Below, piece by piece: positions 7,937-43,572 of a stretch of DNA of 64,000 bases. Within the stretch, counting starts at the first letter, position 1; the number at the start of each line of letters is the position of its first letter. The notes below the pieces were generated by a model, which saw nothing but the letters and a program-made list of their open reading frames with translations, was not told the origin of the DNA and searched no databases. The stretch lies in contig JBEWZL010000221.1 of NCBI GenBank assembly GCA_045837725.1, positions 1 through 64,000 of the forward strand, in the 5' to 3' direction. The position numbers were made by a program, and so were the translations under genes. The DNA is from Vermamoeba vermiformis (lineage: Eukaryota).

Positions 7937-9350
7937 TTAATTCGAATCCGTAACGGATCCAGACTCGTACCCCCACATTGACGGAGTACACTCATCATCA
8001 CGATTTGGACTCAAAACAATTGCAGTAAGCTCGCTTAGTCCACCATCAAGGTCGTGATGAGGTACAGGAGAGGTCTGTTTGAAACGTGAGAACCGGCTCT
8101 TTGTTGAACTTCGCTGAATTAATACGTCGTTTCGTAATACTGGAGTACTGTGTCGATCAATATCATCAACTTGAATATATTCTGCAGTGTCACGGCAGAG
8201 AATTTGCTCAAAAAATGCTCCTTTTTGATAGAGCATCTTTCCAATCTGCTTTCGCTTTTCAATGGCAAGGCGAACAGCTCTTTCAATATGATCCTCGATA
8301 TCAATAGAATCGATAGAATAGTCTTCCGAGACCCTTGGCCTTTCTTGGACCTGTAATCGAGATTCAGAACGATCTGCTGCGTAAAATTATCTGAAAGGAT
8401 TTACCTGAAATGATCCGCCACTGAATACTACATGAAAGTATTCATCCAATCGCGTTTCTACCAGAATTTTTCTGTCTTGAATTAATTTAATCGTGACTGA
8501 TCGAGTTTTCAGATCTCACCGCATTCTCTCGAGTTGTGCTCCTGGTCTTGTCTGTTTGGGCCGAGTACTCCTCAGTATTGAATTTAATATTGCGAGGTCG
8601 AACCAGTAGCCCTCACGGGTGCATTGGTTAATGTTAACTCGCAGATCGGAAATATTTATTTCTGTAATTATATCAGTACCGTAATACTAATTGTAAATAA
8701 ATTTGCTTACTTGAACTATGGTACTGTTCTTTGGCAAGTTGTTTGATTTTTGAAAGCCCGATCGACGTAAAGTTTGCAATTCCCAAAGGACTAAGCATCA
8801 GCCGGCGGGTGTCATTATGAAATAGAATTCGGTGTTCCTTAAAATATCTAAGATTCGTTAGGATTAGCTTGCACAAAATAATAACTTACGTGTAGTCCTG
8901 ATCGAGTGACATGTCAAACTGAATTTGCTTACTAAGTAAATTTTATAAGCTATTTTAACCACAATTGTTAATGTTGACTATCCATTAAGTCTAACGATGC
9001 ATCGACGTAACCGAACTCAAGCTACTAATCCGGAAGATCAACAAATTGATCAGAGATCACAAAAAGTTGCCAAACAAATTGAATTGCCTCAATGATAACG
9101 ATCTATGCATTGATCGTGCAGCATTTAGTCGCTTAGTTTAGTAAGTGGTAAAATTAAGCGCATTTTAGACCTGATCGACTCTAACAAAATATTTACAGTG
9201 AAATAACTAATTCAATTAAAGCGGACACCTACTGGAACGGTGATGCTCTATTTATTCTACATTTAATTTCCGAACAATTCCTTTCTGAGTTTTTTGAGCT
9301 TTGTCGGATGAAGGCCAAAACCGAAGATCGCGTTACTATCACCGCTGACA
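7937..9350 (-). CDS. Hypothetical multi-exon orphan gene, convergent with the Nei-like gene; start uncertain
   Basis: ORF pieces 7937-8236, 8119-8304 and 8673-8876, with minus-strand splice signals (ttac/ctcac on +). Its stop is 5 bp from the Nei-like stop. Confidence 0.4.
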
Positions 9351-9885
9351 ATTTAAAATCGTTTATCAACACTCAAAATAGCAATCCGATATAATTTTGT
9401 AAGCCCAAGTTGTTATTCTTGCTCAATAAATCACTCGAGCAATTTCTAACTGTCGTTAATTGAATCGCGCCTGGATACCACAATTAACGTAGCATAGACC
9501 TTCCTATTTTTCGAGATTTTAGAATATATCATTAGCCAATCCTCCGTGCAGAGGTGTCAAACGTGACACCTGAGGACTTCGCGCATCTAGAATCTTAAGC
9601 CTGCAATAATTCTTACTTAAGTGTAAATTTACTGTAAGTAAATTTATCTTTTAAATGGCGGATGGATCGTTTTCAATCCAATCCAGAAAGTCTCCAACCG
9701 AGTTGGCCGTACTCATTGTTTGGACTCGTCCAAATAATCACTTATATTGAAAATTATTGAATCGTATTAGTACGATATTCTCTTTTAATTTAAATGCAGT
9801 TATTACTTGATTCGCAGATTTGTAACTCGATTTTACTGTTATTTATTAAGAGATGTAGCCGAGTGTCAATGACGCGACGATGCTA

Positions 9886-10063
9886 AGAGGGTCGCCAATG
9901 ACCCGTTGGCAGAGTTACACATGACATTTTGCATACTTTCTGCTGGCGTGATCGCGACACATCTGCAGCTATTTTCGGCTGGGCTAGAGGAGAGGGTCGC
10001 CAAGGACCCGTCTAATAGCTCAAAGAGCTCTAAGTCTTGCGGAGAGGGTCGCCAATGACCCGT
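9886..10063. repeat. Three copies of the 21-bp palindromic repeat AGAGGGTCGCCAAKGACCCGT
   Basis: Copies at 9886, 9991 and 10043 with a GGGTC-N6-GACCC inverted core; the spacers are unrelated to each other. Confidence 0.9.
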
Positions 10064-11592
10064 CTGCGTGACTGTGGGCTCCATAGCCAGATGCAACGGA
10101 TGCTGTCGTGCTTCCACAACAGAGCATTTAAACTCCATTTTTACAATATTTATTATTGTCAATTATCGATTATCTGCACTTTGAACTAAATATAAGAATT
10201 AAAGCCAAAGAAACGGTTTTAATTAATTGGAGAATTTATTTCGGATCGTGTGTTTGTCACAGGCCTGTTCGTGCCCTTTACCGTCCAATGTCTGGACGGT
10301 GTAATTACAATCGCAAAGCAATGGTCTCGTAAAGGTCTCACCTACGAGCGCGCTTCGTTTGGAACCTTGCTTCACGCCAGATGACAGGAGTGAGAGCTGT
10401 GCCGAATCAGATAATCCGAATCACGGAGTTGTCTCGTGCTTGAGAGACAGATTGGGCACCATTAATTGTAATTATAAAGTAAAGAAAAACACCTGTGGTC
10501 GAATGAACAAATAATGCGTAAAACTTGACCGTTGCGAGCATCGGTGTGGTTATTCAGTGAAAATTCGGGAAACGAAATCTCCGCAAGATCCTCTCGGTTT
10601 GATTTTGTTGCAACGGTCAACAAGAAGAGCTCACGAGAAATATCGAGGTGTTAAAACTATGGCACAGATGCACGCACCGATGCAGTCATTCCTCCCGGGT
10701 ACCTTCGCTAGATTACTCGGAACGAGATACGAACTTGACAGATTGACTTCGTAAGATCTTAGCGTGGCCACTACCACTGATGGTTTCTCAATTGGCAATT
10801 TGTACTCGCGCACAAAGGTTAGTTGCTTGTGCAGAATACACCACAGCTCTACAAGTTGATGGCGAATTGAATTGAAATCGAATCCGTTCTTGGTCTCAAA
10901 ATGGTTAGTAATTTATTTAATAAATTAGCACATATCATTTCAAGATTCACGTGAATCACGAACCAATTAATGCTGTCATTATAAATTTATTTCACTTAGT
11001 TAATATTCGATAGATTTGCAAGTTTGCCGTGAGAGCTCATGGAACTGGAGCACGTAAGTACTGCAACTGTGTTATATGTGTTCGTGTACATTTGCCTAAA
11101 CTCTTAATTCAGGTTGGTGAGCTTTGATATCGAACATTTGATGGACGTGGACGAGTCTGCTCAGCAAGCCCTGAAGTGCCTCACCGCAGCCAGCAAATAG
11201 TGCGAAAGTTTTGAACCTCACTGTCTGTGTATCGAGCTCACAGAGGAGTGCTACCCACTTGTGCTAAGGTTGTTCAAGCTCGCAATCATCTCGTGTTGGT
11301 ACCGTCTCGAAGGAGAACTCACGGACTTATGGTACTCGACTCACCACATCCCGCAAATGTACTGCAACGGGTGTGCAATCTTGTGTTCATGGAGCACGCA
11401 TGCGTGCCACTAAAACTGCTCTCCATCGACAAGCTCTTCTGCGTTGCGATCCGCAGGTTATTATTATTAAGTCTGTCCAAATTTGTAATTTGTAATTCCC
11501 TATTAAATAACTTAAATATGTTTAGTCGTGTCACTACAGATTTACTATCAGGTTGAATATTTTTTTTTATTTAGACGAAAGTTCATTTCTTA

Positions 11593-12189
11593 ACAGATCG
11601 ACCACAAGGGTCGAATTATTGATTATTTATTGATTATTAGCACCTGTTAGTGACGCGCCACGACGTCAACGTCGTTTCAGCGCGAGGTATTTCGGATTAG
11701 TCAAATTTGCACGTGTCAATTTTGAAAGTATTTTTAAAACCGAAGACAGATCGACCACAAGGGTCGATTTATTTATTTGTTGGTATTACAACGTTGTAAT
11801 TACAGCTGACAGTAACGCGCTGCGGCATCTGAGCCGTTCCAGCGCGAGTTATTTCGGATCAGAGCTGATGCGAAAATGGCGCACGGGCTATTTCGCATCA
11901 GTAATTCAACAGAACGACCACAAAGGTCGTTATATTTATTTATTATTGTTAATGAACAACAGATAGTTACGCGCCACGGCCACAACGGCCGTTCAGCGCG
12001 AGTTATTTCGAGGATTGGCAGTCGCGAACTTGGATTCGCAACAGGTCGGCCACAAGGGTCGATTTGTTTATTTAGATAGCTTATTGTTTATTAACACACA
12101 CGCGCCAAACGACAATCAGCGTCGTTCCAGCGCGAGACTCAGCGCACGATCTCAGTAGTCATGCGAATCTCGGTGCAGTGACCGAGATT
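11593..12189. ncRNA. Four-unit array of structured multi-hairpin elements (candidate ncRNA or ssDNA structure)
   Basis: Units start at 11593, 11746, 11909 and 12041. Each has ACAGR-TCGACC-ACAAG-GGTCGA-like hairpin A, an AT-rich linker, ACGCGC-[variable hairpin]-CAGCGCGAG (hairpin B), TATTTCG in three units, and a third variable hairpin. The stems covary. Confidence 0.6.
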
Positions 12190-12689
12190 ATTCAAGGTAA
12201 TAATGTTCCATTAATACTACCAATTAAGTATTCGTAAATCATTAAATATAAATCATTTTTCCGTAGCATTATTTTAATTCGTAATCAATTTTAAATTCGA
12301 ATGTTTAAATCCAAATCTTTGCTTAATTATGGTTTTTATTTAAATTACAATATACTGACATATTATTTATCAATACAGAAACATATAATAATATTGATTT
12401 GCCGATCAAATCGCCTTGATTATTTGTAAAAGAACGAGAACTGCAATCACGTAAGAGTTATTAATCTGTTCGTTTTATTATATATATGGCACTAATTTAG
12501 TTAGCATACAATTCTTTGAGATCTGTGGCGTATTCCAGCTCGTAAGTCATAATTTACTATACAGCACTAATTAATAGAATTCATAGCACTCAAAATGACA
12601 GTGATCACGTTCATGCATTAAGTCGGCTCGTAAGTATTTTTAATGGTACGAATTTGTTTTACGGCCAATATTAGTTGCTATGGCTCGCA

Positions 12690-13903
12690 TTGGACGGACC
12701 CTCTGTGCCGTGCCTTCAACGTCCTCTTCTTCACAACACCTGCGTGACTTGCACTGTCCAAGACTTGGACGCTTGGTGTTGCGTGGCTCGCACCTCCCGG
12801 TTATTGGTGCTATCCTCTACACCGTGCCATCAGCGTGCCACCGTCCAGTTATTGGACGGTCCCCTCAGTGCATGGCTCGTACCGTCCAGTTATCGGACGG
12901 TCCTTCAGTGCATGGCTCGCACCGTCCAGTTATTGGACGGTCCCCTCAGTGCGTGGTTCTCACCGTCCAGTTATTGGACGGTCCTTCAGTGCGTGGCTCG
13001 TACCGTCCAGTTATTGGACGGTCCTCTCTGCATGATCAAGATGCATTTGAGCTCGCCCCGAACGACCGCAACGGTAAGTATTTTTAATGGTACGGATTTG
13101 TATTAACAGCCAATAGTAGTTGTTGTGCCTTGCATTGTCCAGCCGTTGGGCGGACCCTCTGCGCCGTGCCTTCAACGTGACACCGTCCAGTTATCGGACG
13201 GTCCCTCAGTGCGTGGCTCGCACCGTCCAGTTATTGGACGGTCCCTTCTGTGATGTGCCTTCAACGTGACACCGTCCAGTTATTGGACGGTCTCCTCAGT
13301 GTGGCTTGCACTATTCTCGCACCTGTCCAAGACTTGGACGCTTCATTGTGCGTAGCTCGCACCGTCCAGACTCTGGACGCTTCACCTCACACTGGCTGAG
13401 AGTAAGTCCAATTTAATTTACAATTAAGCAGGCAACAATCTGACTGTTCTCTTTAGGACCAAAGTATGCAGGTGTCAGCAACGCTGTCCAAATTCTGGAC
13501 GCTTGGTTGCCTCTGCGTGGTTCGTTGCAAACCGCTAAGTGTTGCACATTTCTCGGGCTTGGCTTGCACGATCCAGTTATTGGACGGTCCCTTCTGTGGC
13601 ACGCCTTCAACATGACACCGTCCAGTTATTGGACGGTCTCCTCAGTGTGGCTCGCACCAAGTCTTGGACTTGTTATTGGTGCAGTGCTCGTGCTGTCCAC
13701 GGTTCACTCTGTACTGTGCCTTTAGTGCAACCGTCCAGTTATTGGACGGACCCTGAAGCTGGACGCTTGGCTGGTACCAAGTGGCTCTGTGTGGCTCACA
13801 GCATACCGTTCGAGTATTGAACACTTTTGAGCTGCATGGCTTGCGCATGCAGAGTCTGTGGACGCTTCTCTTGTTGGCTGTCTGCCTGTCCAAGTCTTGG
13901 ATG
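12690..13903. repeat. Palindromic minisatellite ACCGTCCA-GTTAT-TGGACGGT (40-41-bp unit, with higher-order duplication)
   Basis: Full cores at 12841, 12882, 12922, 12963, 13003, 13183, 13223, 13272, 13618 and 13731, a partial core at 13572, and GTCCA-N5-TGGAC/T variants at 12756, 13325, 13364, 13486 and 13888. Confidence 0.95.
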
Positions 13904-14028
13904 TTTGCCTTGGTAATTACTCATGCCTGCTTGTGGCCTGTCTTGTACCTTGTACCACCCTGTACACCCTTTGTACTTTTAAATTAAAAGTTTATTTTTT
14001 ATAAACAGCTAGTGCACTGAGGTTGCGG

Positions 14029-14045
14029 CCTAGCCCCAACCCTAA
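14029..14045 (+). repeat. Degenerate interstitial telomeric remnant
   Basis: cctagccccaaccctaa reads as three degenerate CCCTAA units, in the same orientation as the terminal telomere and just after the repeat zone. Confidence 0.45.
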
Positions 14046-14280
14046 TCTTTATAAAGTGAAAGAGATCAGCAAGGTCATTTCATGCAACCCTATTAGTATC
14101 TCAAGTTGTTTATACTGGTATCCTTTGCTTATTATTAACTTCATACACAACTTACTAACTTGTATTCCAGCTGTAAAACATCTGTACTGTAAAAATAAAA
14201 AGTGTATAACTTCTAAATTTTTCTGGATTTTGTCAAAGGGCATGGGGCATGTCCATTTTTTTCCAGGTATATGTGAACTC

Positions 14281-15857
14281 ATGCACGCCAATCCAATGCA
14301 GCAAGTTTGAGTTCAATAGCTTGCCTAGTAACAAAGTTATAGCAGCAGTTGTAAAGCATTTATTAGAGCAGCAGGATAAGGCATATATGTACGTAGCTAT
14401 GCCAAACCATATATTCTTATAAACCGTTCAATATTAGGCTCAAATAACGGCTGATCAGTGTCTCACTGCATATCGCCAAAACCCGAAATGGAAAGGCGGT
14501 GAACCGCACCTTGAGTGGATTAAAACACTAAAGATCAAAGGGACATTCACGGAACAGCAATACAAGAACGCTGCCAGGCACGTAAGTTTAAATTCTTGGA
14601 ATCTAGATCGACTACTCATCATTCTATTGCTTCAGGTAGCAGCCACATGGAGGCGTTACCGTAATAGCAACAAGACAGTCATCATTCAAGCCACTTACAG
14701 CGATATATGGGGTACTGATGAGTTTCCTGTTGCAATAACGGATCGAAATCTGGAGCCGTTTTTCAACTCCGAGTCTGGTGCTGCTCAGCTCCAACGCTGG
14801 ATCCTAAAGAAGCTAATGAAGATTAGCGACAGTAATTTGAGCATAACGACACCGCCGGCTCTTTACGTAGCGTGGATCAGGCAAAAATTCATCAAACTAC
14901 GCAGTGAGTCCAAAACGGTTATTAGCAATACTTTATTAATATATGATAGGGTGATTCAAGGACCAAAAGGAGATGTATGCTGAATTGCGACTGAAGATGA
15001 AGGAGCTAGAAGGGCAACACGCCGAACAAGAGCTGCTGCGGGATTTCAAGGGATCTTTGGAAAAAGAAGAAGAGGAAAGAGTACCGAACAACAACAATGG
15101 TAAGAAGAGTCCCAAGGCTGGCAAAAGAAAACGAGACTTGGTCAACAAGAAGATCCGAGATGAACTTGACGAAGAGGAAGATCTTACGCCCAAGAAGTCG
15201 ACATCGCGAAAGAAGGCAAAGTCTACAAAGGCGAAAGAAGGCCAGTCTCCTGAAAAGCCACTGAAGACAAGCAAGAAGAAAACAAAGAAATCTACAAAGA
15301 CGACAGAAGACGCGCCTCTCCTTGTTCAACTACCCGGATCCGACAAGTCAGTGACTTCAACAACCGAGAAGCCCACTGACGAAGCAGCGCCTGTTAAGAA
15401 AACCATCAACAAGCCCAAAGCTGTGCCGCCTCAAAAAGCGAAGCCCGTGGCAATGAAAAATCAGGACAACAACCACGACTTGGACTTTACTTTTGCGTTC
15501 TCGATGCCTTCATCGCCAAAGGTCAACAAAAGAACCAAGAAACAAGCGGAAGAGAAGGAGAAGAGGGGTGTAGAAGAGAACGTGGAGCCTCAGGCGATGG
15601 CTCGAGCGACAAGATCCCAGAGTGCGACCGTTACAAGCAACGATAAATCCAAAAAGAGTAAGTATTAATAATAATGTACATATTTTATTATTATTCTAAC
15701 ACTATTTTATCGAGGAACTGCTCGCGATGCCAGCTTGAGCGAATCTACTTCAAACACACAAAAGAAAAAACAGAAATCGGTAAATCCTTCATAAACCGTT
15801 ATTTTATTTCATATTATTAATTCTATTACTTTTACACTATAGACCTCTCCGTAGTTG
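14281..15857 (+). CDS. Hypothetical multi-exon protein with a long Lys/Glu-rich low-complexity C-terminus; both ends uncertain
   Basis: Exons near 14438-14581, 14636-14903 and 14950-15656 with GT-AG introns; ORF 14973-15668. Confidence 0.55.
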
Positions 15858-29138: not shown

Positions 29139-30238
29139 TTAGAGCTCATCAATTTCGCCGTTGCCCTTAACCCACCAGGCCTTGGTTTGGCGGTTCTTGC
29201 TGACAACAGTTTCGACGGTGTAGATCAAGGTCAATTGTACAGCACCGATAGGATCATCAACCGAATCACCAACTATAAATTCGATATTAATAGAGCCATA
29301 AATTATCACCCAAACGAAAAGAGATCTTCGATCAATATTTAATTATTATTAAATTAGTAGTTCAATGAGCCAGTTCTTGGCCTCGCGATAGTATAATTTT
29401 TATATTACATACCGTTCAAAACTTGAGGAATTTCAACGGAGCAAGCAAAGTTATAACCCCAAGCAACCTGATCGATGAGGATTAGAATTTTATAGGAAAG
29501 GTTCAACGCAGGTTGTCGAGCTATGATAATAGTCCGCACTATCTATCGTCATGCTATTAAACTTACATCGATATTAGAAGGAATGATTTGAACACCAGTC
29601 AAATATTGGCCTTTGCCTTTATATTTGCCGCCATAAATATAGACGACGTGGTAGTCAAACTTAATAACGGTGGCCTACATAATTCAGTCAATAAATCGCG
29701 GTAAGCATTTTTAAAAAAAATTGATCTTTTAAAGGTGAATTGTACTGACCTTGTAAAGATTAAAGTACTCAATGGAGTAAGCTTCAGAAACAGGTTGTTT
29801 CCAGTTTGTCAAAGTTTTCCAGTCCTCGATACCTTTCTGAAAGAAGGAACGACAAGTTAGAATTCGAACGGATTTAAGGATTTAGTTCGTGCTTACGGGG
29901 GTGGCAGTACCGTAATTGACCTTAACCACAGAAGTAGGTTGATTTTTTACGATAATGTCCCACACTTCCTTGCCAATATTAATCATAGAACCAAGATCAA
30001 CTCCATCAAATTGCAATCCACGTTCAGCGCGAGCAACGCTCTCGTTCAAACGAGCCATATGTTCCTTGTAAAGGTGGTACAAATTACCGCGAGCAGCTTC
30101 GTGAGGCTCCAAGCGACGGATCTTGAAAGTGAGCTCTTCGGCAGATTGGTCACCGAGATTCACACCTGAGGTCGAAACACGCAAGGCATTGGCAAAAATA
30201 GCCAATGACAAAATTAATACAACGGTAGTTTGTTGCAT
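29139..30238 (-). CDS. Secreted uncharacterised beta-rich protein
   Basis: Signal peptide MQQTTVVLILSLAIFANA. Five exons give INIGKEVWDIIVKNQP..W..LTNWKQP..NLY..YGGKYKGKGQYL..VAWGY..DPIGAVQL. Confidence 0.75.
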
Positions 30239-36236: not shown

Positions 36237-39200
36237 TTAATCACTTTCGCTGCTCGAGGTGCTATCATTCTCATCTTCTTGATGGTCCACTGATCGCACG
36301 GACTGACTGCTCTTCACTTCATACTGCGCATCAACTTCAGCCTCTTTAACAGGGTCGCGATAATGATCTTCTTCAGTGTCGCGTGACACCATTGTAGTCA
36401 TGGAATTAAAGTCTTCTTGCTTATCCACGGACAGCATGCTAGAAGAGGTCACAGAGTCGGAGATCTCCCGCATAGAACTTGACGAGTCGAAAGAGCTTCC
36501 AGAGTACGTTCTGATTCTATGGTTGGCCTTCAAGGTCAAGGGTGGATTCACGGGCACAATCACTGCTTTGAATAGCTGTTCGTGACTGATAGTATTCAAG
36601 TCAACGCGTTTGCTGAGATTAGCTTCAGATCTCATTGTATTGAACATGTCGACGGGCGTTAACGAGAACGAGAGTCCTTCGCTGACGTGATGCGGCTGGT
36701 TGTGGTCTGCACTGTCGGCGTCAATCTCGAACACATTGGACATATCACTGCGTGCCGTTGAGACGCTCTTGCTAGCCCAAGTAGACTCATCGTTATCGTC
36801 CTCCTCTTCTTCACGCAGCTCATCCAAGAACAGATGTCTGTCGTTGAGTTCTTCAGTCGTGTCGTTGTTCTTCACACTTTCATTAGCCACGGAAATGACT
36901 GACTTATCGTCGCGCTCTTTAGGCTTGTCTTCTTCTGGAAGGGTCGATACATCTCCAATAGGCACGTGATCGTGATGTTCGCTCACGTCATCCATGTTAG
37001 GGTGATCGCTGACTTGTGACGAATGATCGGTCATCTGTGCCATTTCCTCCATCACACGGGCCATGCGTTTGTCACTAAACACGCTGTAAGCATCACTGAC
37101 TACTGAACGGTTGTCGTCGTGATGGTGCATGTCAAGTGCCTCGTGATCAAGCATGCTAGCGTGGCTGGCATAGTCTGTGCTTAGTTGCAAGTGTTTCTCT
37201 TCGTGCGACTCATCGATAGGAGCAAGGCCCTGCTCTTGATCGCGCTGGTTAGACGTGCTTTGATCGTTCAAGCCCGAGCCTTTTTGTTGCACGAATTGAA
37301 CGAGCAACTGAACCGTGTTCTTCAGCTCCTCAATCTCGCGTGTTTGTTTCTGTTTGTCTTCACGGAGTTCATTGACAGTGCTCTTAAGTGCTTCAATTTC
37401 CTTCGCTTGCTCATCCACAGTCTGCTTGAACAGTGTTGTAACACGATGAAAACTTGACAAAATGTCACGTGGCTTGGGTGTTTTGACGACATTTTCGGAA
37501 GTTGGAGGTGAGCTCGGGTTACCCCCATTGGCTTCAAACTTCGTGATCAATGACTTGATGTTGGCACTCGAGAACTCCATGGACGTCGATGGAGTTGACG
37601 TGCTTGACAAAGTGCCTTCTTGTTGACCCTCTTGTCTGTTCGCGTTAGTCAATTCGCCAAGCTGTTGCTGCATCTGTTGGAACTGCACGACGTAATCGAA
37701 CGCAGGTTTGAGTCTGTTTAACACGTTCAATTGCGACTCCAACTTGTCGTTGATCGCTTGGCCCCAGTTATTCAACTAAACAAACATTAGCAGTGCTCCA
37801 AATAAGAAATTTCGTTTTTCTTACCTCGCTTTCAAGCTTCGATGCTCGTTCACGATCACTCTTTTCAATCCTGTCCAAGTTGTTGAGAATGTCTTCGTTG
37901 GTCTTTTCGACTAGATCCAAGCGCGTGTTAACAGCTTGTAACTTGTCCTTCTTGTTCTTGTTCTTCGCTGACATGTCGACATGGCCGCTCATAATGACGT
38001 TCTCGCCTTTGAGCTTCTTGCCCAGTCCGTAGAAACTCAACTTGGACGCTTCTAACGGTGCATTTTTGCGCTTGTTTCGCACCAAGAAATAACAGCCCTC
38101 TTCGTCACACTATAGAAGCTGGAGTTAGAAAATTTCTCTAGAAAGTGAGGTTGTGCTTACGTTCATATCGAGCACAGGTCCGTTAGTTGAGTATTCTTTT
38201 ACTAAGTAGACACGCAACGGAGTCTCGAGACCACGTGCCCTATCAATAGGCGCCGGCAAGCTGTAGCTGTTGCCAGGGCTGCCGATCGGTGTGACAATGC
38301 CAGGCACTGCTACACTGCCCCCAGTAGCCGGGCCAACGCTGTTGCTGTTGTTGCTCGTGGTCAAACTACTTGTGCCTGATCCACCCGTCAGATCAGTCTC
38401 ACTCGAACCGTCTTCAACGCGCCACACAGTGAACTTTGATGACTCGTGACCGACGATTAAATGTGGTCCTAATTAGAGGACATTAGCATCGATCGATCTG
38501 AAAAAATTCTGTGTTGTTTGTACTTGCCTTGTTTCTGGATCAAATTGATTTTGTTCTCGTAATACGAAGCACGAACAATGACCGGTTCTAGATTGTTGCC
38601 AGAAGCCGCGCTTGATGTGTTGAGATCCGCTTCGTTTGTCGTGTTGAAATAATACATATTTGCGGGGTTTTGAGGGCTATAACGCATCATTAGATGTATT
38701 TCCTTATTTGGAATGATACTTACTTGATCAACAAATGAGTTAATTTTCTCACGCACACGGTGCCATTACGATCACCAAAATAAATGTACTTCTGATCCAA
38801 ATACATCTCGGTAATAATTGTATGGTGTCTTATAACAATAGGATCGTCGTTGGCTGTAGAAAAAGAAAATCATTAGCAACGAGAACTGACCACATCCGGG
38901 GCTTACCTTGACCCAGGAACCAAATGTAAATAGTATCGATTGTAGATCCTGCCACGCACTCGTGGTTAGCTTGCAATTTAATCAAACTTGTGCCTTCTTC
39001 TTTCAGCTCGCCTTCTCTTTCGAGCTTGCAAGCGGATGTGTTCCAAAGTTGCCACGCCTGAAAAAAAATTAAATTTAGTCAAATCAAACTTCAAATATTA
39101 AATATAATATCTTACGTGATGACTGCCAATCAATAAATAATCTTTTGAAATGATTTTGCAGAATTGATCCACAGGCTGCAAAATGTTGGAATGGACCATG

Positions 39201-42338: not shown

Positions 42339-43572
42339 TTATTCGTCGGAGGTTTGAGGAGCCTCTTGGCGATCACCACCACGGAAGCCACCACGACCAC
42401 CACGGAAACCACCACGGCGACCACGGAATCCTCCACGGCCACCCTCAGGGCGCTCACCGCGTTGTTCACGGTCACGCTCTTCACGGTGGTACTTCTCGAC
42501 CTTAGGGGCAGACAAGAATTCGGAGTAGTGAGCGAAGGGGTGGTTGAGCAATCTGTGCTCGGGCCACAAATCGGGGGTCAAGAAAGAGTAAGTGGCAGTG
42601 ATGGCAGCGAAGGTAGCCTTGGCGAAGTTACCGAGGGTCTTGGTTGAACCCTTGGATGAAGTGTAGACGTCATCAATACCGGCGATGGTCAAGATCTTCT
42701 TGGGGACACGGGCAGAGACGATACCAGTACCACGAGGAGCAGGGACCAAGCGGACAGTGACGGAACCGCACTTACCGGTCACCTTGCAAGGAACGGTGTG
42801 GGGCAAACCGATCTTGTTACCCCAGAAACCTCTGCGAACAGGGACGACAGAGAGCTTGGCGGCAATGATGGCACCACGGATAGCGGTGGCAACTTCCTTG
42901 GAGCACTTAACGCCCAAACCGCAGTGACCGTTGGAGTCACCGACCATAACGTAGGCCTTGAAGCGGGTACGTTGACCGGCCATAGTTTGCTTTTGGACGG
43001 GGGAGATCTTGAGGACTTCATCCTTCAATCCCTATATTGAAGCAAAATATTTAGTATGTTGAGGGAACATTGTTTAAATACGATTAAGAAAATTTGTTAT
43101 TATTATGGTGGTGGATTTCGATCGCGATCCAGAAACGGTTTGTGGAGCCTTCTCGCGCAAAATTAACAATTATCTATGATAATAATACTAACCTTGCCAC
43201 CGTCAAAGAAGTAGTCAATGATTTGGAACTCCTTGACGGGGATGGAGTGGAGGTAGATATCCTCCAAACGAGCAATCTTGCCGTCCTTAACAAGGCGACC
43301 CAACTTGGTAACGGGAACCCAAGCGGCTTCTTCCTTGTTGTCACGGTCACCACGGCGACCACGACGATCACCGCGACGATCGCCACGGCGACCAAATCCT
43401 CGACGCTCTGTTTAAAAAATATTTTAATACAAATGTCCATACAATTATAATAATTGGTAATTGTATAACATATTTAGCATGCAAATGTAATTAAGAGAAA
43501 ATTTGTAAGCTGGAGATTTGATAACTTACCACCACGGGGTTGATCGGCTCTGGTAGTAGTAGTATCGGCCAT
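42339..43572 (-). CDS. RPS2: 40S ribosomal protein S2 (uS5)
   Basis: [45 protein letters not shown]-rich termini. Confidence 0.98.

Follow-up and report, generated by a model that had tools for sequence, protein, structure and literature searches.

A tandem array of two-hairpin modules in a non-coding subtelomeric stretch of Vermamoeba vermiformis

Layout and conservation of the array

A stretch of 64,000 nt from Vermamoeba vermiformis (GenBank assembly GCA_045837725.1, contig JBEWZL010000221.1, positions 1 to 64,000; hereafter the window) carries a tandem array of units that each hold two hairpins, here called A and B. The array lies about 11.6 kb from a chromosome end, where TAACCC is repeated 3.5 times at positions 1-22 and indicates a telomere of the TTAGGG type. 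It is a real, unannotated, structured repeat without a known family, and consists of a non-coding module that was duplicated in tandem long ago and is present in four copies, together with one decayed copy (Table 1). An earlier reading made from the letters alone (the sequence-only reading) had described recurrence at 153, 163 and 132 bp, and these spacings are reproduced both by the sequence, with units beginning at 11593, 11746, 11909 and 12041, and by a repeat finder, in which the decayed unit 0 is 60% alike to the reference copy of the repeat family D1.

The arrangement within the units is regular. An invariant ACAG stands directly ahead of hairpin A, and the hairpin strings quoted in the sequence-only reading are present as it stated them: TCGACC-ACAAG-GGTCGA in units 1 and 2, ACGACC-ACAAA-GGTCGT in unit 3 and TCGGCC-ACAAG-GGTCGA in unit 4. 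A linker of 38-48 nt, A/U-rich in all units, leads to hairpin B, whose start lies 59-60 nt from ACAG in three of the four units, unit 2 being displaced by a 9-nt insertion. The outer CGCGC/GCGCG clamp of hairpin B is invariant in 4/4 units, as had been noted, and adjoins an internal loop in which 1-2 nt on the 5' side face 3-4 nt on the 3' side. The TATTTCG reported to follow hairpin B in three units is found in units 1-3 and is missing from unit 4. With respect to coding potential, the first module runs into a stop codon within the linker in every frame, and two of the four unit lengths (163 and 156) are not multiples of three.

Table 1. Coordinates of the array, its hairpins, and the hairpin repeats and intron-like segments around it.
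Feature	Position	Strand	Remarks
Unit 0, decayed	11536..11592	+	ACAGAT, then a degenerate hairpin A and an A/T-rich linker, without hairpin B
Unit 1	11593..11745	+	129.6 bits against covariance model R1
Unit 1 hairpin A	11598-11614	+	
Unit 1 hairpin B	clamp 11654-58 with 11680-84; upper stem 11660-65 with 11670-75	+	
Unit 1 TATTTCG	11688-94	+	
Unit 2	11746..11908	+	whole-unit fold z -6.3 on +
Unit 2 hairpin A	11750-11768	+	extendable to 9 bp on +
Unit 2 linker			9-nt insertion is palindromic
Unit 2 hairpin B	clamp 11816-20 with 11842-46; upper stem 11822-26 with 11833-37		G.T at base of upper stem
Unit 2 TATTTCG	11850-56	+	
Unit 2 third hairpin	11865-11901		11-bp stem
Unit 3	11909..12040	+	
Unit 3 hairpin A	11913-11931		T-A to A-T; loop ACAAA
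Unit 3 hairpin B	clamp 11970-74 with 11996-12000; upper stem 11976-81 with 11987-92		loop ACAAC
Unit 3 TATTTCG	12004-10	+	
Unit 3 third segment			weak 5-bp hairpin only
Unit 4, most diverged	12041..12196	+	49.5 bits as held-out copy
Unit 4 hairpin A	12041-12067		11 bp on +, including three G.U pairs
Unit 4 hairpin B	clamp 12101-05 with 12130-34; upper stem 12108-13 with 12121-26		
Unit 4 TATTTCG			absent
Unit 4 third hairpin	12166-12189		9-bp stem
GGGTC-N6-GACCC	9879-10065		3 copies, spaced 105 and 52 bp; GAGGGTCGCCAA(T/G)GACCCGT
CCGTCCA-N5-TGGACGG	12835-13753; 10280-10300		13 copies, plus one at the second position
Intron-like segments	11054-11112, 12451-12500, 12542-12586, 12630-12674, 13074-13119, 13402-13456	+	read from sequence

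These elements recur more often than chance would allow. Searched across the window with up to three mismatches, the hairpin A pattern gives six matches against 0.62 expected, namely the four A hairpins, hairpin B of unit 3 (whose ACAAC loop resembles that of hairpin A) and a three-mismatch site at 2972. The string TYCAGCGCGAG gives six matches against 1.14 expected, four of them within the array, and one exact match at 30023 lies in coding sequence. A covariance model (CM; R1) built from units 1-3 only, with unit 4 held out, recovers unit 4 at an E-value of 2e-8 (score in Table 1), and finds nothing beyond the array across the 64 kb, the next-best score of 19.8 bits belonging to the array's own reverse strand.

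Where they can be aligned, units 1-3 show 67-73% likeness to one another and unit 4 is 60-67% alike to them. Conservation is very uneven: mean pairwise identity is 0.85 in the A block of 26 nt (shuffled 0.52) and 0.75 in the B block (shuffled 0.52), while the linker (0.64, shuffled 0.56) and the third segment that follows hairpin B (0.50, shuffled 0.46) lie at about shuffle level, and it is hairpin A and the B clamp that are kept. Taken together, the overall likeness and the block identities show that the duplications are old and that decay spared particular blocks, and such block-wise sparing points to selection and is not what a young or a homogenised satellite would lead one to expect. A satellite of that kind would consist of many near-identical units with uniform divergence, and the locus holds four units and one relic; the remark that the array is unlike a simple satellite agrees with the 60-73% likeness and the 0.50-0.85 range of block identities. 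The broader statement that structure is conserved and sequence is not holds for the upper stem of hairpin B only, as in hairpin A and in the B clamp the sequence itself has been kept.

Stem pairing, related reads and strand

When each unit is read in its own register, every core pair is formed, amounting to 24/24 cells in the core of hairpin A, 20/20 in the B clamp and 23/23 in the B upper stem. In a column-fixed CM alignment 90% of cells pair, compared to 27-44% with slid partners. In hairpin A one pair is changed on both sides in unit 3, from T-A to A-T, and the core of unit 4 contains one wobble, so that both the double compensatory change and the G-T variant described from the letters are present. 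The upper stem of hairpin B varies at its fourth pair (A-T in units 1 and 4 but G-C in the other two), at its top pair (G-C in unit 1, C-G in unit 3) and at its base pair (G.T in unit 2). The inner stems that the sequence-only reading quoted for the four units occur as quoted and all pair; its view that they differ throughout needs qualification, as they are homologous (RCG[A/G]C) and only two to three pair positions vary.

Minimum free energy (MFE) z-scores, taken against dinucleotide shuffles on the + strand, range from -3.2 to -6.0 for hairpin A and from -3.1 to -4.7 for hairpin B. For the third hairpin proposed to come next, the outcome depends on the unit, the fold being significant in units 2 and 4 (z -4.65 and -2.3, respectively) but not in units 1 and 3 (z -0.25 and -0.16). 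That all core pairs are kept though the units are 60-73% alike, and that compensation is seen in related reads as well, supports a selected hairpin-forming structure.

These related reads come from three RNA sequencing (RNA-seq) runs with the same species label, each of about 13 million records, which were matched at 90% likeness and gave 9, 14 and 15 reads matching the units. The matches cover ACAG, hairpin A and the first part of the linker at 11746-11780 and, in unit 4, hairpin B at 12098-12134 and the third hairpin at 12163-12196. Hairpins A and B are connected in the reads via two different linkers, of 22 and 26 letters; the distance from ACAG to B is 59 nt in the related organism's copy, and the reads run at least ~90 nt upstream of hairpin A. 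Three consensus strings from the loose ends of the reads do not occur in the window. The two linkers, together with flanks absent from the window, suggest that diverged copies exist elsewhere, in a relative or as paralogs.

In hairpin B of these copies C12113T is found in 11/11 reads and turns the pair into U.G, and four of those 11 add G12121A and make it U-A, which constitutes an independent compensation outside this genome. A further change, T11768A, takes away an extension pair of hairpin A. Judged by their sequence, the reads may be taken as evidence of conservation and as weak evidence of transcription; the run look-up found no run recorded as RNA that contained the array stretch.

With regard to strand, whole units fold better on + in 4/4 cases, and hairpin A of unit 4 reaches -14.2 kcal/mol on + compared to -4.4 on -. 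Wobbles that pair on + only affect hairpin A in units 2 and 4 and, in unit 2, the lowest pair of the B upper stem as well; an outer position of hairpin A is C.A in units 1-3, which we counted for -. The tally comes to about five events for + and two for -. The intron-like GTAAG..YAG segments adjoining the array, 45-59 nt long, are all on + (Table 1), and their lengths resemble those of four introns of 45-52 nt in coding genes of the window. The predicted folds and pairs thus lean towards the + strand, which is not a settled result, + being favoured for whole units and hairpin A and not for hairpin B. This agrees with the earlier remark that wobbles in A fit + and hairpin B fits -, as both were seen and the strand was left unsettled.

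Wobble-type mismatches on both strands would be expected if neither strand is read, and they enter into an explanation at the level of DNA. Here the array would be a subtelomeric repeat whose palindromes act in duplex or extruded DNA, as dimeric or bipartite factor sites or as non-B DNA, with RNA as a by-product. The conservation of the A and B clamp stems as sequence speaks for it, as does the setting of the array, which lies 11.6 kb from the TAACCC repeats in a stretch of ~5 kb without Pfam matches among the open reading frames (ORFs) tested, together with two further palindrome families (GGGTC-N6-GACCC and CCGTCCA-N5-TGGACGG). There is also precedent, in that published work describes subtelomeric arrays of a bipartite palindromic factor site (PMC3218844) and satellites with dyad symmetries of less than 10 bp (PMC5889037). 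However, the upper stem of hairpin B changes its sequence and still pairs, both here and in the related reads, which a duplex site does not need; the loop of hairpin A is conserved and asymmetric; and there are only four copies, conserved block by block, unlike a homogenised satellite. On balance we consider the DNA-level explanation rather unlikely. If it applies, the array adds another case of structured telomere-associated repeats and would be ordinary.

Interpretation and comparison with known RNAs

The reading that we favour, tentatively and with less than even confidence, is that the array consists of structured RNA modules repeated on the + strand of a non-coding subtelomeric locus, forming a multivalent platform for protein binding or processing. 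An RNA on + is preferred because the upper stem of B covaries, because conserved single strands are asymmetric, because whole-unit folding and the orientation of splice signals agree, and because related units are found in RNA libraries. The conserved ACAAR loop, ACAG and UAUUUCG are non-palindromic and are more readily explained if one strand is read than by a symmetric duplex site. What the data demonstrate is the repeat, its hairpins, their selective retention and the absence of a known family; transcription, its strand, a protein partner and any processing are inferred.

Each module would begin with stem-loop A, which has a 6-bp core extendable to 11 bp, an ACAAR loop and ACAG ahead of it, and would continue through a single-stranded A/U-rich linker of fixed length to the two-tier stem-loop B, in which a small asymmetric internal loop separates the 5-bp GC clamp from a covarying upper stem of 5-6 bp; in units 1-3 the conserved, presumably single-stranded UAUUUCG would follow. 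The modules may be co-transcribed in a longer RNA polymerase II transcript from a gene-poor, hairpin-rich subtelomeric locus, which on the + strand would run away from the telomere. Several copies of both hairpins could then be offered to an RNA-binding protein, like the Xist A-repeat or the roX stem-loops. Alternatively, the modules could mark cut sites in a precursor and give rise to ~100-nt RNAs with a SmY-like layout. If the array does act as RNA, it would be a compact case of selected, repeated hairpin modules beyond a few model long non-coding RNAs, and its two short hairpins with a conserved loop would make a bait for the binding protein.

Several observations weigh against the RNA modules and should be taken into account. 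The CM alignment contains two pair changes that affect both sides, a number equalled by 75/500 shuffles, and hairpin A alone contains one, equalled by 138/500 shuffles; this alignment sets the 3' arm of unit 3 one column out of register and hence undercounts covariation. Four sequences cannot give significant covariation, and of the compensatory changes claimed from the letters it can be said that a few are present in A and B but that they are not significant with four sequences. The structure moreover rests on paralogs and short read fragments. None of the 38 reads is 99% alike to the array, all but one fit only partly, and they are found in both orientations at a depth of 0.1-4; they may stem from paralogs, from other species or from DNA carry-over. 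In the third hairpin of unit 4 the related reads carry T12188A (19/19) and G12184A (3/19), both of which break pairs and are uncompensated. As for the strand, hairpin B folds better on - in 4/4 units, by 0.2-2.7 kcal/mol, and the position adjacent to its clamp is C.A in units 1, 3 and 4 and T-A in unit 2, corresponding to G.U or A-U on -.

The sequence-only reading had thought of discrete small RNAs of 130-160 nt. These are not borne out, as the spacer that would hold the promoter is not conserved, T-runs of at least four are found after unit 1 only, and reads reach ~90 nt upstream of hairpin A. A modified version can be proposed, in which tandem small-RNA genes use hairpin A and the A/T stretch as promoter (proximal element and TATA-like box) and the RNA of ~70-95 nt starts near ACGCGC and contains B, UAUUUCG and a gene-specific 3' part. 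Taking the A of ACGCGC as +1 would place hairpin A at about -55 to -39 and TTTATTTA-like runs, which are seen in units 1, 3 and 4, at about -38 to -20; the ACAG-to-B distance of 59 nt is the same in the related organism's copy, and the variable part would be the specific part of each RNA. In unit 2, however, this spacing is broken by the 9-nt insertion, and with T-runs of that length restricted to unit 1, termination by polymerase III is not evident. A promoter would need neither the compensatory change in hairpin A nor the + strand wobbles, the related reads cross A, linker and B unbroken, and the variable parts are without complementarity in the window beyond that of shuffles, which leads us to regard such genes as improbable.

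Complementarity of the variable segments had been raised earlier in connection with guide RNAs, and the check found nothing beyond shuffles in the window; adjacent 15-mer and 11-mer matches at 39121-39142, in a coding exon, are within or near the shuffle range. We therefore do not retain a guide RNA as a candidate.

Rfam 15 gave 0 matches over the whole window at the gathering threshold and 0 over 9000-14500 at E <=1, and the seven matches at E <=10 over 11300-12500 are to bacterial small RNA and viral models at 14-19 bits, far under their cut-offs. The novelty of the array, which the sequence-only reading said a match to a known Rfam family would remove, is thus not removed. The window contains no tRNAs. 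For box C/D snoRNAs, a C box (RUGAUGA with up to one mismatch) was not found on either strand of 11450-12300, and CUGA sites (D box) are not at conserved positions. Box H/ACA snoRNAs were sought by an H box, an ACA three bases from the 3' end and hairpins that enclose a large pocket; here the conserved ACA (in ACAG) precedes hairpin A, and the few nucleotides of the internal loop in B could not form such a pocket. Among self-cleaving ribozymes, such as the hammerhead repeats of retrozymes and Penelope-like elements, no family matched at E <=10, and the CUGANGA of the hammerhead core (CUGANGA...GAAA) is not conserved. An Sm site (RAU4-6GR) is seen in near-canonical form, AUUUGUUGG, in unit 2 only, units 1, 3 and 4 having UUAUUG-type runs, and AUUUCGG, which had been loosely compared to such a site, lies after hairpin B and is absent from unit 4.

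For a spliced leader, GAG followed by GU is found after hairpin B in unit 1 only, GAG being followed by UU in units 2 and 3 and by AC in unit 4; the 9-15 reads per run that touch the units compare with the far higher abundance that a spliced leader would have. A candidate splice between CAAG and GTAATA after 12196 was rejected as divergence, the continuation of the reads resembling the next bases of the window with a small deletion. We also rejected a mini-exon arrangement, in which ACAG is the acceptor and the variable segment an intron of 43-65 nt: units 2 and 3 are without GT where unit 1 has one, and introns in coding genes starting with GTAAG or GTGAG, together with linker stops in every frame of the first module, likewise speak against it.

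Searches for homologs in other collections gave no convincing relatives. In metagenome contigs a 22-mer of hairpin A had 0 matches and a gapped A-B pattern had three, all in GC-rich, apparently bacterial coding DNA; in viral contigs the A-B pattern and the neighbouring hairpin had 0 matches each, and a pattern scan of prokaryote genomes had four. Model R1 scored none of these seven metagenome and prokaryote loci, which we judged to be chance matches. The hairpin A string was absent from the full text of the papers searched.

The closest analogies are therefore those of architecture. The Xist A-repeat is described as 7.5-8.5 copies of a 26-mer hairpin core with U-rich linkers between them, in which stem structure and not sequence matters, the effect scales with copy number, and the whole forms a multivalent protein platform (PMC5742192). 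The tandem GC-rich hairpin cores and A/U-rich linkers of the array resemble it in kind, not by homology: the two are unrelated in sequence, each unit here is about three times longer and carries two different hairpins, there are only four units, and Xist belongs to a mammalian system. Similarly, roX RNA is described as having tandem stem-loops with U/A-rich sequence that the MLE helicase recognises collectively (PMC7528653), and again the likeness is one of architecture only, the array having neither a roX-box nor a sequence relation. For the SmY RNAs of nematodes, the cited text describes several paralogous genes and a stem-loop on either side of a single-stranded U-rich site, with strong sequence conservation in the first stem-loop (PMC11229312). 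The array likewise has a conserved first stem-loop A, then a U-rich linker and then B, but has no Rfam match and no evident canonical Sm site, its linker measures 38-48 nt, and its telomere is of the TTAGGG type. The genes for SmY RNAs are clustered.

Two comparisons concern repeats in DNA. Plasmodium telomere-associated repeat elements (TARE) 2-3 are presented as non-coding subtelomeric blocks with the bipartite palindromic SPE2 at conserved positions on many chromosome ends, which are also transcribed as a long non-coding RNA, lncRNA-TARE (PMC3218844). Both loci are subtelomeric non-coding repeats packed with a palindromic motif; however, lncRNA-TARE runs toward the telomere and the strand favoured here away from it, SPE2 serves an ApiAP2 factor as a binding site in duplex DNA, and there is no sequence relation. 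Satellites are depicted as tandem repeats with dyad symmetries under 10 bp that are able to leave the B form (PMC5889037), whereas the array has four copies only, 60-73% alike and conserved block by block, with no centromeric location established. Since no defining sequence feature is present, we would not claim membership of the array in the hairpin-repeat kind of long non-coding RNAs or in SmY.

The surrounding subtelomeric region

The array is part of a stretch of about 5 kb (9.5-14.4 kb) without a Pfam match in the ORFs tested and without a convincing coding gene, in a window that is otherwise gene-dense. Three families of short hairpin repeats fill 9500-14400, and perfect GC-containing hairpins, of which the window has 84 against 43 expected, are concentrated at 9-14 kb. 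The GGGTC-N6-GACCC element and hairpin A have the half-sites GGTC/GACC in common. Five copies of CCGTCCA-N5-TGGACGG form a tandem array of 40/41 nt, with conserved arms and loop subtypes GTTAT, AGACT and others. The array of all 13 copies is open in all three + frames, which we attribute to a shortage of A on that strand, and has no Pfam match; a full profile search found five proteins, one of which is a 94% identical prediction, and two, on short NCBI contigs, carry peptides from all three repeat frames. The occurrence of peptides from all three frames on other contigs indicates a dispersed repeat at the nucleotide level and not a gene. Among the flanks of the hairpin A/B array, the candidate coding ORF 11215-11556 was rejected as having no homolog and ORF 12644-13087 as matching repeat-derived predictions only; exact look-ups of two window ORFs returned nothing.

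Presence of the CCGTCCA-N5-TGGACGG repeat at other loci, the differing flanks and linkers of the related units in reads, and the subtelomeric position would also be compatible with a mobile-element relic or its internal repeats, e.g., a Helitron/HINE-like or foldback-like element that is non-autonomous and has hairpins in subterminal position and tandem repeats inside. A Helitron 3' end has a CTRR terminus that is preceded, at a distance of 10-12 nt, by a GC-rich hairpin, and in the four units no CTRR was found at a fixed distance after A or B. Further evidence against a relic is that no terminal inverted repeats bounding the region were found, that there was no transposase or reverse transcriptase among the ORFs tested, and that conservation after deep divergence is block-wise and not a uniform decay. 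We regard this origin as quite improbable, below the other alternatives.

An intron-like GTAAGT...TAG of 45-46 nt is duplicated with its flanks 444 bp apart (12630-12674 and 13074-13119), with 94% likeness over 32 nt. This and the + strand intron-like segments at 12451-12500, 12542-12586 and 13402-13456 suggest a putative spliced non-coding transcript downstream of the array. The only near-identical public contig found, from run X1, may be DNA or RNA; it measures 201 nt and corresponds with two differences to 12301-12501, outside the array; it covers the A/T-rich stretch just downstream and ends one base beyond an intron-like segment.

A more far-reaching proposal, building on the RNA modules that we favour, is that the two-hairpin units constitute an undescribed RNA module family of a sparsely sampled eukaryotic lineage and that the array, the GGGTC and CCGTCCA hairpin arrays and the short + strand introns form one spliced, structured, non-coding subtelomeric RNA locus, with copies at several chromosome ends, that recruits proteins by means of its repeated hairpins or is cut into small ribonucleoproteins of ~100 nt. 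This we put forward as a speculative and rather unlikely scenario.

The remainder of the window is eukaryotic in character. Introns of its coding genes are 45-52 nt long and begin with GTAAG or GTGAG (four examples), and Pfam matches include uS5/RPS2, an OSCA/RSN1 channel, a fatty acyl reductase, an ABC transporter and ankyrin repeats. An orphan protein of 512 aa, encoded at 36237-37775, has relatives at 74-100% identity. The best named relative of RPS2 is a protein of a bdelloid rotifer (72% identity), and compared to solved structures RPS2 is closest to chains that we take to be from Drosophila, plants and other animals, those presumably fungal, apicomplexan, kinetoplastid and ciliate being lower. 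RGG repeats of uS5 are usually N-terminal, and the RPS2/uS5 reading frame at 42339-43031 (-) ends in a C-terminal tail of RGG/RGGF repeats. A 100% identical RPS2 protein is found in many environmental contigs of transcript size.

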